From positions 1-64,000 of the IMG/VR virus record IMGVR_UViG_3300007517_000005: DNA of 64,000 bases; one strand, written 5' to 3'. Under the pieces are notes generated by a model, which did not search any database, was not told the DNA's origin, and worked only from the letters and a program-made list of their open reading frames with translations. Below, piece after piece: positions 37,301-40,033 of this stretch (position 1 is its first letter; every line of letters starts with the position of its first letter). The translations under genes and the position numbers were made by a program. This DNA is from a virus.

Positions 37301-40033
37301 GGTAATACTACTCCTATCACTCTCCCCAGCCTGCTGTATCAGATCCCCTGTAGGTGTGAAACTATCTAAATACTTCTGTACTAATGTCCTCTTCTCACCC
37401 TCTGATAAATGTGATAGGTACTGCTCTGGACCCCACACTAATAACCTATTCGTACTCTCCAATAATAATGTCGATACTAGTGATAGTGTTGTACCTATAG
37501 GGTTCATTACCGCTGCCTTATTTGGGGCTACAGTCACGAACTTCTTATTCAATGCCTCCGCTCTACCTAGTAATACATCCTGCCCTATACCACGGGATAT
37601 ATCCTCTACCCGTATATTCAATGAGGCTGCACTACTATTGTGGATAAGAGATCTCGATATCACGCGCCCCTTTGTTATATCTAATACGTACCCCTCATCA
37701 CCCCCCATACCCCCCGCAAGGGTCGTATAATCCCATCTGAATCTAGGTCCATTACCCTGTACCCTCTCAAACCCCTCACCAAACCCTGCTAACTGCCGGG
37801 CGTCCATGCTCAGTGATAAACCTATACGCTCTGTTCCAGACTTACCACCATATTTATATGACACCTCCCCCACACCTAATGTGGTAGTTAACTCTGTCAA
37901 CCGTGCATGTAACTCCCCTAACCTAACCTTATCTACCTTATCCTCGTACCACGCGGACGTGGGCCTCCCTTGTACATCCCCTAACTCTGTGCGTGTTAAT
38001 GTACCCCAATCTTTACTGAATGATTGACGGGCTAGCTCTAGCTCCGCATTCAACTCCTCCTGTGATAGTGAGTAAGGGCCCGTCCTTGCCTTACCCTGTA
38101 TCATGGCTAACCCCATCTCCCTATTAGTTCTCTCTATCTCCTGGGGGGATGTATTGAACTCTGGTGCGTGCATAGAGAAAGGCCCTAGGTTAGATGAGCC
38201 TGAGTAGAACGATCTCGCCTTATCTATATCCCCTACTGCTGCCTGGGTAGAACCATTAATGATTGACTCAGTTACTAAGTACTGTTTTGAGTGCTGCATT
38301 GGTACAGTAGTCAACCTTATGTTCCCAGAGGTCATCGCTAGTAATTGCCTTGCATAACTCTCATTGAACCCCTCCGCTAATGTACTTCCCGTGGCTGCTT
38401 CTACTCTCCGCATGAAGCTCTTCACGGGGTTACTTACATCGTACCCAACACGTGATACTAACTCTTCTAATGAGTTAATAGGTAATCCCGTACCCTTGAA
38501 TATAGCCTCTGTACGCTCGTACATCGGAGTAAGGACGTGCTCAGAGTAGTTCCTATTATCTATTGCTAGGAAGGCTCTATTACCTATTACTAAATCTAGT
38601 AGCTCTGTTTGTATACCCTTCATGATGGGGCCGCGGACTGTGCTAGGGCTATCAAACTTACCCATCTCCCCATGCAACATCTCATTGAACATAGTGTCCT
38701 CGTGGTACAACAAGAACACTTGATTCAATATCCCATAGAACTTCTTATCCGATGGGCTACGCATCATATCCAACGTCTCCCGTAAGTGCTCATACGTCTC
38801 CGCTGACCCTACTATCTGCCCCTGGTTTAGGCGTAACTGTTCTGTGGGATCTTTTCGTAAAGCATCACGATTACCCACAGATGTCTGTAACTGCTTGAAT
38901 AACTTATCAGAACTAGATATTAGTACCTCTTCCTCGCGTGTGGGTGTCATCCCCTGATTCCTGTACTGCTCCTCAGAGTACTCACGAGTCTGTAATCTAC
39001 GCACTACCTCATAGTTACTACCCGCCTGATTCACATCATTACCCACAGGGGCTGTTAAGTTGAGACTACCTATCACCCCAAACTTATCAGTCACCATTAC
39101 CTTCTGGTGACTCTTCCTATCCTGTACGAATAACTCTATATCACCTCTCTCCCCTAATGCTTCTTTAACCCTCCTCAACCTCTCTAGTGATAGTAGGTTA
39201 GGGCCTAATATATCGAACCCCTTCTGCCCCTGCATTCCCTCATCTGGTAACGATAGGCGCACTGATACCTTGATGCCAGGAGTATCCCTTACTTTCTGTT
39301 CTAGCGCATCTAGTACTGTTCTATTCTGTAATTGGTATAGGTCTATTACTATCTCACGCTCTGCCTGATCTATCACATCTACTATCAGACCCACACCGGG
39401 GCGCCTTATATATGGATCCCCTAATGTACCGAACGTACCCTTCTGCGATAATGTCCTCGTCTCTCTATTCAATCTACTCATGCGGGTCTGTAATTGCGTA
39501 GCAGGTAATGTGTCCTTACTCACTAACACATCTACTATTTCTGTCGTGCGCTGCCTCAATGAGTATGAGAATGCGTCCTCATCTTCACCCCATGCTTGTG
39601 ACCTGTTTAAGCCCGTGTATGTACCGCTGGGCATATCGTAGAATGTCTTGAATACAGAGCGTGATGCCTCTCCAGCCTCGTATCCCTTCTCACTAAAGAA
39701 GTCACCATGCAATGACTTCAATACATCCTTACCTTCTGATAGTAGTGACTGTATGTCAGACCCGAATGTTGATATAGCACCACGGCTTAACTGCTCTAAT
39801 GCTGACTCATTACTCAAGCGGGATAAGTCAAACTTCTCCCCTACCTGATTGAGCGGAGGTGTCCTTGTACCACTGCGGGCATTATATGGTTCTGATGTGT
39901 ACGGTCTCTTATTACCTACCGCACTCGCTGTGCGTATAGACTTACTCTTACCCCTGACTGCCTTCCTTGCAGCCCTCCTTGCTTTAGAGAACCACTTCCT
40001 TGATAGTGCCCGCACCTTCCTTAACATCTTCAC
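28340..40033 (-). CDS. Giant multidomain protein: PLD-family domain plus putative single-chain two-barrel RNA polymerase (candidate virion RNAP)
   Basis: HQKVMVTD..GSLN (aa ~309), HSK...GSSN (aa ~581); GMYSDY (~1373), GSRVDSGTSLFKGVAV (~1545), DIFGLVNP; RLRG (~2145), FRSAP (~2718), DYDGD (~2776). Confidence 0.75.
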   Translation of the reverse strand: MKMLRKVRALSRKWFSKARRAARKAVRGKSKSIRTASAVGNKRPYTSEPYNARSGTRTPPLNQVGEKFDLSRLSNESALEQLSRGAISTFGSDIQSLLSEGKDVLKSLHGDFFSEKGYEAGEASRSVFKTFYDMPSGTYTGLNRSQAWGEDEDAFSYSLRQRTTEIVDVLVSKDTLPATQLQTRMSRLNRETRTLSQKGTFGTLGDPYIRRPGVGLIVDVIDQAEREIVIDLYQLQNRTVLDALEQKVRDTPGIKVSVRLSLPDEGMQGQKGFDILGPNLLSLERLRRVKEALGERGDIELFVQDRKSHQKVMVTDKFGVIGSLNLTAPVGNDVNQAGSNYEVVRRLQTREYSEEQYRNQGMTPTREEEVLISSSDKLFKQLQTSVGNRDALRKDPTEQLRLNQGQIVGSAETYEHLRETLDMMRSPSDKKFYGILNQVFLLYHEDTMFNEMLHGEMGKFDSPSTVRGPIMKGIQTELLDLVIGNRAFLAIDNRNYSEHVLTPMYERTEAIFKGTGLPINSLEELVSRVGYDVSNPVKSFMRRVEAATGSTLAEGFNESYARQLLAMTSGNIRLTTVPMQHSKQYLVTESIINGSTQAAVGDIDKARSFYSGSSNLGPFSMHAPEFNTSPQEIERTNREMGLAMIQGKARTGPYSLSQEELNAELELARQSFSKDWGTLTRTELGDVQGRPTSAWYEDKVDKVRLGELHARLTELTTTLGVGEVSYKYGGKSGTERIGLSLSMDARQLAGFGEGFERVQGNGPRFRWDYTTLAGGMGGDEGYVLDITKGRVISRSLIHNSSAASLNIRVEDISRGIGQDVLLGRAEALNKKFVTVAPNKAAVMNPIGTTLSLVSTLLLESTNRLLVWGPEQYLSHLSEGEKRTLVQKYLDSFTPTGDLIQQAGESDRSSITNLSDTLARRLRGDVDGALQKARAWTGQEVRGKDVSNELGGIIDNVQHLLSSMSYGYTASEYEQYKLENKSDVEARASVPISDGDLSKARIKRAGSYSSDIVDMLLPLLDTSADFRLAVVQATVAQSNASYMEMLSSGINKMSGAMMEPFLLSAQVSQYSGAQGWFRLPMYSATNEYQEVLQNLEGTPFHSLATRAIAIPRAISPYSSIGTPGLHRNVAGGTNNEGTSTDTGLTLFGQRGTAVDTIMHHRVTSSMGVGFSTTREDILSSTLSDKAKVRALAVFDEQGSDELLTYMFGGKGKVAQIPQRLKNTQGQRGMGKLTQALTTAMDGTGPDFLASAREYGRDIGQRLREKLVRKNPTWTPRQVEQYVDRIMPEQDVVLAASFAMSVRGMMSGEQVAIMEAYESSLMELGLDIEDFNEGGIGHELVRMRAISSDVMSTGMKGFTSSPSFALVQMAGMYSDYFYANPDASPMEGNLRTTTKKVKASMLGVAWTRADAGGQELASARDVVMFDESLQKVIVVNHITGAVTNHELSSLTEGDILALPKEVIDDRGQRSVLEAMIENKGREIGRSSASTITTTGWVRPGEDSKEYLLSMRALPGGGGNQLFYELTYMQAKSPSGGSRVDSGTSLFKGVAVFLTSAYFENIAALRKGKPSDNVLGEIESKDIFGLVNPSNLKSFSLEHGGTLLREGKANIVLDAMSEREAAVAMLLAFGSNYIDTPDKGALSSALYEALREMPGVYKETALQIGLRQGPEAGSRELLSSLDKAWNPASMYSLMDITNEQMLSALSGAPDKSGGTGIKSTLSELMSKGTKSSKYLNVDNAIERQAATILTALDITRQLMRDERVTPGDVSYRPDVIEQLMSLVGLSKAPEEELAQAMVRGLSQSVASVYLKMDLAYSSSKEPIGTKGTGALQNADLVRPFTQIAKEFTEGGDLSKLRVVLANMLVSTATTETATMMMLKLQGIEDVEIRSVFDPQLFTPLAMSRNLGIYGSGMEDITALKKSYKDYGGAVQIAIEERVTALASGVGDVRTLGSELSTLLFEASNPSSIHTQSLLGSMWRGEYSTSLSAIQDVGRRYELLATKAFGVGEAEAIAREMSHERGIYHLPAVVFDSMPSESGRIIARFDDVSPGTSFYLPSAEDLRTYGIQYGSYTDELVRSTLTLASAFSPGTAIGNIFSTLSKVKATGAGSVEFTADEVKALQNYYVTAYGIVERIAEASTGTRLKMEARLRGFVGTFAATFGLPQGMFLAPEEGMRGAGDVRDSLRRQRLEEVTRSLSDPASRDSMRLLKAERDALMGGMGEKGSMLLRTVQGDVEYITRNPLLQKEYIAARLWTIQDANHVSTLMETRSGIGVSQVQADRITQEIKDYTRSRVGTEDIPNLPGVRSYRDIVGAREGNEGNYFAVELGEQVLRSASGVWENSYERTVNPPALESWLRSKKVYEGSERRARLALDDQYVSSKDKPYRIDPYTSITPSLLIETTANELPPLGRLSRVLEQSVAFTGTYGDITLKKGTLTRLREAEGNVTSQLEYQRRQFDTAFNTSSSYNEEGGTWFKRYSVGGDSQLRVSESGDGNYYRKYETVESSWTGKQRDKVTRSLALPTGRLREIVERQQIAADPRRRENATKEWEGLFSRTETMSSFMVGGEEYANREQAMAAGEKVVPNKNLIEQLGRAINADSMGQWQGSVRGRIETYRIDRSLFQGLGMGESRELLADSVDRSKVSIDELLVSLERVDSAYGYDTSQKELIETSRTELRELSSALDTLHKGRGEWTSIEAPLARMESLQVSLNTSDVLQATVFRSAPFGSTELQRQQFTAVGLVKNLNVYLESQGMSQLDERRNKSLGLMPVMSGHALGLLDYDGDNFTVIFSKIGTAMNDRQRLTDRVKSNTLRQGMLRKQASSNGGEYLDEYWLASDEYRIANEEIGMRIKAIDAEMSSVRDTLAQTYDPLLRKEVSSYLGVSQAFMSEYQEKPISMEVLPTYLQQSRGLFGGVQGVAHDNNIMALHATMESIHATEDFRSALSSLKQGASISEALSTSNIDTSVMLKDVSDNHFRELLTNNPSLRADVITKMMESILAKPEQDVSSSLMEGAAQLSSSEVAVSNYSKYMGMGSGASMSPTVYDMLTKTLGVAGGDILGKSYNALVGTLFRDSPLIALSHVLGGEGGSTVMDSMKEYYAGTTMADDVEGTFNQVHIEAKRAESLQAFMKSAQQLLRDSIKFKGDTDVLGDLQKTHGEYQKYIDQGDDASARAVLSEMAGKLGPGPGLRSYMQLSTLIETSSNNVYGKPLTGIDDSSIAFLSKEYKISSNEEMTRLSSEMRDRGVDVSDGTIGDVVRYKVARDMRATITAFRYELGSKDNQPFLDTIWSGIRGFLGVGEDVDRDEAMDRKFISDPSLKADIGAALSKDANEWWDEASSKNKALMLALVDEGRKQTDPIFGSVGEGLNQFVTLETLRKKAGKLGGGRSQTMSGISTELADTDITIALMNSSMNGIDPEAASHYMTVMKDFMGDSTGMEQVLGQTQGGRSFLELNSVSGVGVRVINKKDGGIRVGYHDDPLGEGESYRKFNVRNSAGEVIGEHSSPMGFLDVALEATSTGQRRRLLDNIGDAFNSQTMHSDQSWAGTISSALGASLPEAEVLSATIRRLSEQKVSKGMTAQQASQEAIVEARDPLHQAETREIRGREMGDASTPIISAALRAQAVTSNPPRAVLTGMNPGAQAASHARHSQEMHDAVGRMHDMNDMVLGAGLTLLGSLMATGSINENTIGQVVGGTVSMLGYSQMGRPGVASVLGQSFRARMAHAESKGSQDEGEWVRRWVGREVGFFMGAAVIAPAIMGGAERILSKFSPLRVDRPMDVDRYKGWKAASNTLGGAVLSSVLGMLTSVIGGEVAVHGTNLIPSLGIVESFVRSMSETESKRQDMIGERLAQVGEGTVMDDDGDPMRAAIEVSYVMDNPTTDFSAYPSGESDYSEGDDWEVNVVG

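Follow-up and report, generated by a model that had tools for sequence, protein, structure and literature searches.

This locus raises the question of what the largest gene product of a group of cyanobacterial phages does, and whether an enzyme domain near its N-terminus provides an answer. The stretch of DNA concerned, referred to here as the window, comprises positions 1 to 64,000 of the IMG/VR virus record IMGVR_UViG_3300007517_000005, a linear viral record of 85,511 bp that is ~51% complete according to CheckV. Its minus strand carries an uninterrupted open reading frame (ORF, P0001) of 3,897 codons, the translation of which, when scanned as a whole, matches no Pfam family at all. A first-pass annotation, made from the letters of the sequence, had proposed that this giant protein carries a phospholipase D (PLD) superfamily domain fused to the N-terminus of a putative RNA polymerase (RNAP). 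The giant protein contains a diverged, single-chain, two-lobed PLD in an uncharacterised phage protein that is probably virion-associated. The reading adopted here is that this module (aa 211-694) is a virion-delivered phosphodiesterase acting on nucleic acid, to which a probability of roughly 0.45 is given. Residue numbers throughout refer to the listed GTG start, as they did in the first-pass annotation.

Across the 3,897 residues, HxK triplets occur exactly twice, at H309 and H581, and an extended HxK ... G[ST]xN ... NxE signature is present in each half of the module (Table 1). The textbook HxK(x)4D(x)5GSxN motif that had been placed from 39109, the string said to precede it, and the HSK, GSSN and NRE elements reported near 38293 are all exactly where the first-pass annotation put them. 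A profile search, proposed at the time, finds the Pfam family PLDc_2 in the first lobe, at aa 217-328, with 33.1 bits against a cut-off of 27 (E 6e-8, aa 190-699 scanned alone); the match is seen only when the PLD region is scanned as a separate piece and not in the whole-protein scan. A relative from IMG/VR gives 32 bits with the same family. The PLDc motif model scores 15.2 bits, below its cut-off of 21.9, and a phmmer comparison of the PLD region with the sequences of the PDB returned chance coiled-coil matches only.

The catalytic residues are conserved throughout the family. A word-indexed search retrieved 24 proteins of 3,294-4,625 aa, and an exhaustive phmmer search of 1.84 billion protein representatives gave 47 matches at E <= 0.001, almost all of them 3,200-5,400 aa long and matched at about residues 170-900. 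The H, K and N of half-site 1 and the H, K, N and E of half-site 2 are kept in 47/47 full-length homologues. E342, in the NxE element of the first half-site, is invariant in every alignment, and N340 is invariant in one alignment (A3) and present in at least 90% in two others (A1 and A2). The homologues are 19-67% identical to the window protein over aa 2640-3300; some are only ~20-30% identical and still keep the catalytic residues, and the PLD region is among the best-conserved stretches of the giant protein. The PLD catalytic residues are under strict purifying selection. Family members in which the PLD module is missing or split were not seen among the matches; the five short or N-terminally short ones that were checked (P0061, P0062, P0064, P0081 and P0085) begin in the middle of a domain, indicating cut gene calls. 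By these comparisons, the PLD module is a fixed part of a family of 3,200-5,400-aa proteins, and the architecture that the first-pass annotation suggested looking for in related phages recurs there, with the PLD half-sites in 47/47 and a DxDGD motif, discussed below, in 48/48 sequences.

The retrieved sequences place this family exclusively in cyanobacterial myoviruses of the Ma-LMM01 type (phages of Microcystis and Microcoleus). Among these, only three Microcystis phages, Ma-LMM01, MaMV-DC and MaMV-DH01, are in culture, and in them the protein is called gp080 (3,562 aa, “hypothetical”). Of the other relatives that have a name, the closest is a partially deposited protein (P0081) of the metagenome-derived Microcoleus phage My-WqHQDG, which is 65% identical. 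A full-length family member (P0066, WP_190692774.1) is deposited in the assembly of Calothrix sp. FACHB-1219, on a 359-kb contig; this copy may belong to a prophage, to an episome or to a phage present in the culture.

What decides the assignment to the PLD superfamily is the predicted structure, which agrees with the motifs. An AlphaFold2 (AF2) model of aa 190-699 has a mean predicted local distance difference test score (pLDDT) of 82.6 and a predicted template modelling score (pTM) of 0.86, and in this model a strand-helix order is repeated twice, with the HxK on a strand in each half. Foldseek finds full-length matches to two-lobed PLDs (human PLD1/2, Streptomyces PLD and vaccinia F13) at E ~1e-9. 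In VIA-align, vaccinia F13 ranks first (Z 20.9, root-mean-square deviation (rmsd) 3.6, 280 residues aligned), followed by the bacterial PLD 7e0m (Z 19.2), PssA (Z 19.1), PLD4 and PLD3 (Z ~18), PPK1 (Z 16.8, rmsd 4.2, 272 residues aligned) and the classical PLDs (Z ~14). Over F13, PssA, PLD3/4 and PLD1/2, the alignments range over Z 14-21, rmsd 3.3-4.8 and 272-327 residues, with both lobes superposed together. Since they span model residues ~22-505, both lobes are covered at once, which places the module at about aa 211-694. It is thus close to certain, as far as a model can tell, that this segment adopts the two-lobed, pseudo-dimeric PLD-superfamily fold, and the earlier proposal that two HKD halves build one PLD site is borne out by the canonical fold of the model and by the catalytic residues. 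The extent first given, 38100-39420, stops ~150 nt short at its lower limit, as the end of the module lies at about aa 694 (nt 37952). Similarly, the module lies near the N-terminus of the protein but not at its very end, as it starts after a basic and poorly conserved leader of ~210 residues.

The notion that the module enters the cell with the virion depends on where the gene lies and when it is expressed. On a single strand, the giant gene is followed in order by a 143-aa ORF and the genes for the portal, the major head protein, the sheath and the baseplate. In RNA-seq of Ma-LMM01, gp080 shows no expression at 0-1 h and an increase at 3-6 h, which puts it in expression class B5 with neighbouring tail genes (PMC5780444, supplementary table). 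The location just ahead of the structural genes (portal, head and tail), together with the co-transcription with tail genes in Ma-LMM01, indicates that the giant protein is probably a virion protein. The “ejected enzyme” of the first-pass annotation had been inferred from gene position only; with gene position and expression taken together, it seems reasonably likely that virions contain the giant protein and bring it into the cell along with the DNA. The basic N-terminal 60 residues and the C-terminal hydrophobic segments would suit a protein that is made late, then packaged and ejected.

That neither half-site varies makes it highly probable that the module is an active enzyme. In the proposed mechanism, H309/K311/N325/E342 and H581/K583/N615/E639 would come together in one chain to form a single active site, in which one His would attack the phosphodiester to form a covalent phospho-histidine, while the other His would protonate the leaving group. 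This covalent mechanism is established for the PLD superfamily and is carried over to the giant protein by analogy only. As infection begins, a module of this kind, delivered by the virion, would nick, end-process or degrade DNA or RNA. Nucleic acid is a likelier substrate than lipid, but the choice is tentative, at a little under even odds. The only matches in NCBIfam are weak ones to DpdK (E 9e-5) and the nuclease NucT, in a collection that also holds models of lipid-acting PLDs such as the cardiolipin and phosphatidylserine synthases. In PADLOC, the PLD region matches MkoB, DrmC and DpdK, and in a profile search of the PDB the first HKD motif aligns only with the PLD4 5'-3' exonuclease and a poxvirus virion nicking-joining enzyme (E 0.07-0.09). 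The structural ranking of PLD3/4 above the classical PLDs is also counted toward nucleic acid.

Several observations weigh against a virion-delivered, nucleic acid-directed phosphodiesterase. The second half-site is not a textbook one: its motif Asp is missing, with a Glu one position later in its stead, and between the HxK and the GSSN lies a variable loop of ~28 residues. Because the two lobes are not significantly similar to one another (hhalign E 0.31, with the HxK motifs in register) and lobe 2 on its own has no match in Pfam, the assignment of lobe 2 rests on predicted structure and motifs, and the AF2 model was built from 25 sequences only. With regard to the substrate, the best Foldseek and VIA-align matches include lipid enzymes (PLD1/2, Streptomyces PLD and PssA) and F13, the sequence matches to nuclease-type families are all far below their cut-offs, PADLOC comprises defence families only, and the hydrophobic helices at the C-terminus would fit a membrane-directed role equally well. 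With regard to delivery, no particle proteomics was found in the literature for any family member, and the paper describing MaMV-DH01 states that mass spectrometry is still needed.

The same evidence can be read in other ways. The module might be a virion-delivered phospholipase. At the tip of the tail it would hydrolyse phospholipid of the host membrane, which in cyanobacteria means phosphatidylglycerol, and by opening or softening the cytoplasmic membrane it would let the giant protein and the DNA through, with the C-terminal helices inserting in the membrane. This is rather unlikely. Ranked by E-value, the Foldseek list is headed by PLD1/2 and Streptomyces PLD, which are genuine phospholipases. 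The sequence-profile matches, however, include no family of lipid enzymes and are instead to DpdK, NucT, DrmC, MkoB, PLD4 and the nicking-joining enzyme, and it is the classical PLDs that fall below PLD3/4 in VIA-align. The high-ranking PssA and F13 both act at membranes, and the three Gly/Ala-rich segments at the C-terminus would suit such a role, but a C2, PX or other lipid-binding domain was not found. The presence of a sheath gene indicates a contractile tail, and the related contractile type VI secretion machine fires PLD-type effectors, which is the analogy that this reading draws on.

A phosphoryl or phosphatidyl transferase, of the cardiolipin/phosphatidylserine-synthase or polyphosphate-kinase type, which would modify lipid, nucleotide or polyphosphate at infection, is improbable. 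PLD chemistry does permit transfer to an alcohol acceptor, as is established for the superfamily, PssA and PPK1 are among the structural matches, and a phage protein named “polyphosphate kinase C-terminal domain 1” is a weak match in BFVD; still, none of the sequence-profile matches is to a Cls, Pss or PPK family, and PPK1 is not known to carry the HKD motifs that are invariant in the giant-protein family. Finally, the deviation of lobe 2 from the textbook motif, along with the precedent of F13, which has a variant first motif and a disputed enzymatic activity, might suggest a catalytically dead PLD-like scaffold with a structural or binding role, or even a chance motif. Such an explanation is very hard to reconcile with the H, K, N and E of the half-sites being invariant in 47/47 sequences that are otherwise ~20-30% identical, and with a PLDc_2 score above the gathering cut-off and a Z of 20.9 that is far over background, and it is accordingly given very little weight.

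Table 1. Positions in the window of the giant gene, its parts and the adjoining structural genes.
Feature	Position	Strand	Basis or remark
Giant ORF, 3,897 aa (P0001)	28340..40033	-	collinear counterpart of Ma-LMM01 gp080 (phrog_31006)
Probable true start, ATG with AGGAG	40025..40039	-	sequence inspection
Highly basic N-terminal leader, first 60 aa	39854..40033	-	19 K/R, 1 D/E; poorly conserved
Two-lobed PLD-superfamily module (predicted), aa 211-694	37952..39403	-	AF2 model, VIA-align, Foldseek
PLD lobe 1, aa 211-359	38957..39403	-	PLDc_2 match and model
Lobe 1 string IDQAEREIVIDLYQLQ	39326..39373	-	minus-strand translation
HKD motif 1, H309-x-K311-x4-D316-x5-GSLN325, HQKVMVTDKFGVIGSLN	39059..39109	-	aa 309-325; H, K, N in 47/47 homologues
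N340-Y-E342, NxE element after motif 1	39008..39016	-	homologue alignments
Helical linker/insert between lobes, aa 366-423	38765..38938	-	model helices H177-198, H200-205, H207-210, H221-234
PLD lobe 2, aa 430-694, helical insert at about aa 493-567	37952..38746	-	model; aligns with second lobe of F13, PLD3/4, PssA
H581-S-K583, HxK of half-site 2	38285..38293	-	kept in 47/47 homologues
G612-S-S-N615, GSxN of half-site 2	38189..38200	-	28 residues after K583
N637-R-E639, NxE element of half-site 2	38117..38125	-	E639 in 47/47
Block GG.R..S...LFKGV ... NPSNLKS..EHG, aa 1533-1597	35243..35437	-	invariant R1536, K1545, N1588, K1590, H1596, G1597
Coiled-coil-like insert, aa 2351-2550	32384..32983	-	poorly conserved; coiled-coil matches in PDB profile search
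R2718-S-A-P-F-G2723, conserved upstream element	31865..31882	-	compare RpoC NRAPTLH
D2776-Y-D-G-D2780, DxDGD motif	31694..31708	-	invariant; mostly DFDGD in homologues
C-terminal region with three Gly/Ala-rich hydrophobic segments	28610..29059	-	aa 3659-3677, 3734-3756, 3784-3808; hydropathy scan
143-aa ORF directly downstream of giant gene	27759..28190	-	phrog_32670, unknown function
Portal protein gene	25797..27227	-	PHROG match; opens head and tail block
Major head protein gene	21528..22814	-	PHROG match
Tail sheath gene	14467..17289	-	PHROG match
Baseplate protein gene	9066..11063	-	PHROG match

Whether the remainder of the giant protein is an RNAP, as the first-pass annotation supposed, is a separate question. 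One solid fact speaks for it: the D[FYVHW]DGD motif is present in 48/48 sequences, the window protein included, and in the element upstream of it R2718 and G2723 are kept in 48/48 and P2721 in 47/48. In two-barrel RNAPs a DxDGD forms the metal-binding loop of the beta'-type barrel. Statistical support from Pfam, PDB profiles and hhalign does not follow. hhalign places the DxDGD in register with the NADFDGD of RpoC at E 0.06-0.07, which is not significant, and a hidden Markov model (HMM) of the DxDGD block finds RpoC 459-467 with p ~0.01 against shuffles. Several conserved blocks resemble E. coli RpoB and RpoC by eye, in beta-then-beta' order. A barrel of the beta type would have a conserved Lys/Arg motif (GxKG) with an NP...H.G element after it. 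The block at aa 1533-1597, for instance, resembles the GDK..GRHGNKGV ... LNPLGVPSRMN...ETHLG of E. coli RpoB by eye but without statistical support (p 0.16-0.18), its best match lying beside the RpoB motif and not on it. The block test used eleven HMMs, nine for single conserved blocks and two for merged pairs, and compared the real targets with 500 shuffled ones; for eight of the nine single blocks, the supposed RpoB or RpoC counterpart was not recovered.

Other searches for a polymerase were negative as well. Pfam scans of seven pieces of the giant protein gave no RNAP family, six-frame searches of the complete 85.5-kb record with PF00623 and PF00562 found no match, and a full-length family profile gave no RNAP match among the PDB sequences. 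hhalign comparisons of beta-like, beta'-like and core sub-alignments with RpoB, RpoC and phi14:2 gp66 yielded nothing significant; the targets were E. coli RpoB and RpoC, gp66 itself, and alignments of 24 RpoB and 28 RpoC sequences from 80 loci. An AF2 model of aa 2640-3300 (pLDDT 65.6, falling below 50 at the motif; pTM 0.37) is all-helical, of low confidence and devoid of strands, and Foldseek against the PDB and VIA-align return only generic helical hairpins for it, the model being too poor to judge the fold. A long antiparallel hairpin, with helices of 40 and 52 residues, is predicted directly after the DxDGD (aa ~2781-2960; 31154-31690, minus strand), and matches generic coiled-coil hairpins only, at Z ~10-11. 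The experimentally established virion RNAP (vRNAP) of a Cellulophaga phage, phi14:2 gp66 (L005:66-6608, minus strand), itself matches no Pfam family at E <= 1. Since a proven vRNAP is blank in Pfam, the Pfam negatives for the giant protein weigh little, and scans for phage RNAPs that are based on Pfam should be read with caution.

On balance, the idea that the rest of the giant protein is a single-chain two-barrel polymerase is favoured by a narrow margin over its negation. The further proposal, that the PLD module is fused to a virion RNAP of this type and, as the phage enters, links early transcription to the nicking of DNA or the processing of RNA, is more doubtful. It draws on the invariant DxDGD with its upstream R2718, P2721 and G2723, on the placement of this motif on the NADFDGD of RpoC, on the collinear resemblances, and on two precedents: a DFDxD motif in a large virion protein of crAss-like phages proved to mark an RNAP (bioRxiv 10.1101/2020.03.07.982082), and in P23-45 a two-barrel RNAP is fused to another virion function (PMC10770324). 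Set against it are the profile searches without an RNAP, the eight blocks without a counterpart, and the helical model with its helical-hairpin matches. In addition, Ma-LMM01 has SigA-like promoters before its early genes and does not shut off host transcription (PMC5780444), so that a virion RNAP is not obviously needed, which is mild counter-evidence. The complete architecture, in which one virion-packaged polypeptide of ~3,900 aa would combine a basic leader with an active PLD, a two-barrel RNAP that is single-chain and highly diverged, and membrane-inserting C-terminal helices, is unlikely to be right in all its parts. If it were, a single ejected molecule would attach itself to the membrane, carry out the cutting or processing of nucleic acid (or lipid), and initiate transcription on the genome as it enters.

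Some features of the giant protein lie outside both of these regions. An AGGAG at 40035-40039 stands 7 nt upstream of an ATG at 40025-40027, two codons inside the listed GTG, and this box makes ATG 40027 the likely true start. Across the family, the leader (aa 1-200) shows little conservation. The hydrophobic C-terminal segments, which lie within the last 240 residues, are possible membrane-inserting helices. In the insert at aa 2351-2550, column conservation is 0.12-0.15, compared with 0.4-0.6 elsewhere in the giant protein, and many homologues are ~200-290 aa shorter between the PLD module and the DxDGD.

Among known proteins, the closest in kind is gp080 of Ma-LMM01 (YP_851094.1; UniProt A0A7J4; phrog_31006), which belongs to the same family, is collinear over its whole length, has the same two half-sites and the DxDGD, and also adjoins virion genes. 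BFVD holds a model of the first 1,187 residues of gp080, and this matches the model of the window module at E 2e-33 with a TM-score of 0.75. The two differ in that they share only ~28% identity in the N-terminal region, in length (3,562 versus 3,897 aa), in a PLDc_2 score for gp080 of 22 bits, which is below the Pfam cut-off, and in the orientation of the gp080 gene, which is opposite to the head genes. gp080 is uncharacterised, and its UniProt name, “PLD phosphodiesterase domain-containing protein”, comes from an automatic rule; the PLD domain has thus already been flagged by machine in the founding member. The nearest relatives of the window protein are the giant protein of My-WqHQDG, deposited as a partial sequence without its N-terminus, and the metagenomic proteins P0002-P0007, at 65-79% identity. 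The My-WqHQDG group are jumbo myoviruses placed beside Ma-LMM01, in a preprint that mentions neither PLD nor RNAP (bioRxiv 10.1101/2023.04.12.536658).

F13, the K4 nicking-joining enzyme, PLD3 and PLD4 are single-chain two-lobed PLDs like the window module, and K4, going by the name of its PDB entry, is a poxvirus virion enzyme acting on DNA. These proteins differ from the module in being free-standing (~350-490 aa), in coming from eukaryotes and their viruses, and in sharing only 13-18% identity with it; the shared fold does not fix the substrate. Nuc/NucT, DISARM DrmC, DpdK and MkoB, small bacterial nucleases with a single HKD, match lobe 1 weakly and have the same HxK...GSxN...NxE core. Each of their chains has one half-site, and they function as homodimers, whereas the window module has two diverged half-sites in one chain and scores far below their family cut-offs. 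Apart from gp080, the BFVD matches at E <= 0.001 are to proteins of poxviruses and giant viruses, all over both lobes, and no other phage protein in BFVD matches both; nor was a phage counterpart found in a published survey of polyvalent proteins.

On the polymerase side, phi14:2 gp66, P23-45 gp96 and N4 gp50 are, like the giant protein, very large and encoded in or beside a structural module. Of these, gp66 and gp96 (in which the RNAP is fused to a tape measure) are single-chain two-barrel enzymes that were first recognised by a DxDxD-type motif, while N4 gp50 is a T7-like enzyme that is not known to carry a DxDGD. A PLD domain was not found in gp66, which is blank in Pfam, and gp66 has no significant similarity to the giant-protein family. 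RNAP activity has been proven for all three, whereas the polymerase in the giant protein is only putative.

Literature searches on PLD-RNAP fusions, cyanophage virion PLDs and polyvalent proteins found no paper on the PLD domain of the giant protein or gp080. The combination of a PLD with a two-barrel RNAP would, if real, be one for which no describing paper was found. This agrees with the first-pass view that such a fusion is undescribed, although the PLD domain of gp080 had already received its automatic name. Ma-LMM01-like phages attack bloom-forming, toxin-producing cyanobacteria (Microcystis and Microcoleus), and their largest gene, ~6-7% of the genome, is “hypothetical” in all listings. 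The strictly conserved PLD active site provides the first testable handle on its product. Delivery with the virion, if true, would point to an unusual activity in phage entry or take-over. A two-barrel polymerase, if true, would make the family an independent lineage of giant virion RNAPs, the third after the crAss-like and P23-45-like lineages, and one that carries a new accessory enzyme; it would also bear on how early genes are expressed without a shutdown of host transcription.

A second giant ORF, of 3,253 aa, lies just past the end of the window (record positions 64794-74555, plus strand). It has a DSDGD at aa 2782 with a GRTP 37 residues upstream, and a zincin-type HELMH motif at aa 1022; it contains no HKD motif, and BLAST detects no similarity to the first giant protein. 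Three further places in the window, all on the plus strand, gave Pfam domain matches. One shows a weak GGDEF-like match (62808-63422; 22.9 bits against a Pfam cut-off of 23.8), another is an HNH_3 endonuclease ORF (53843-54604; 26.8 bits), and a 348-aa ORF at 43700-44746 matches Pfam RlaP, an RNA-repair-pathway nucleotidyltransferase of the DNA polymerase beta family, at 53.6 bits.

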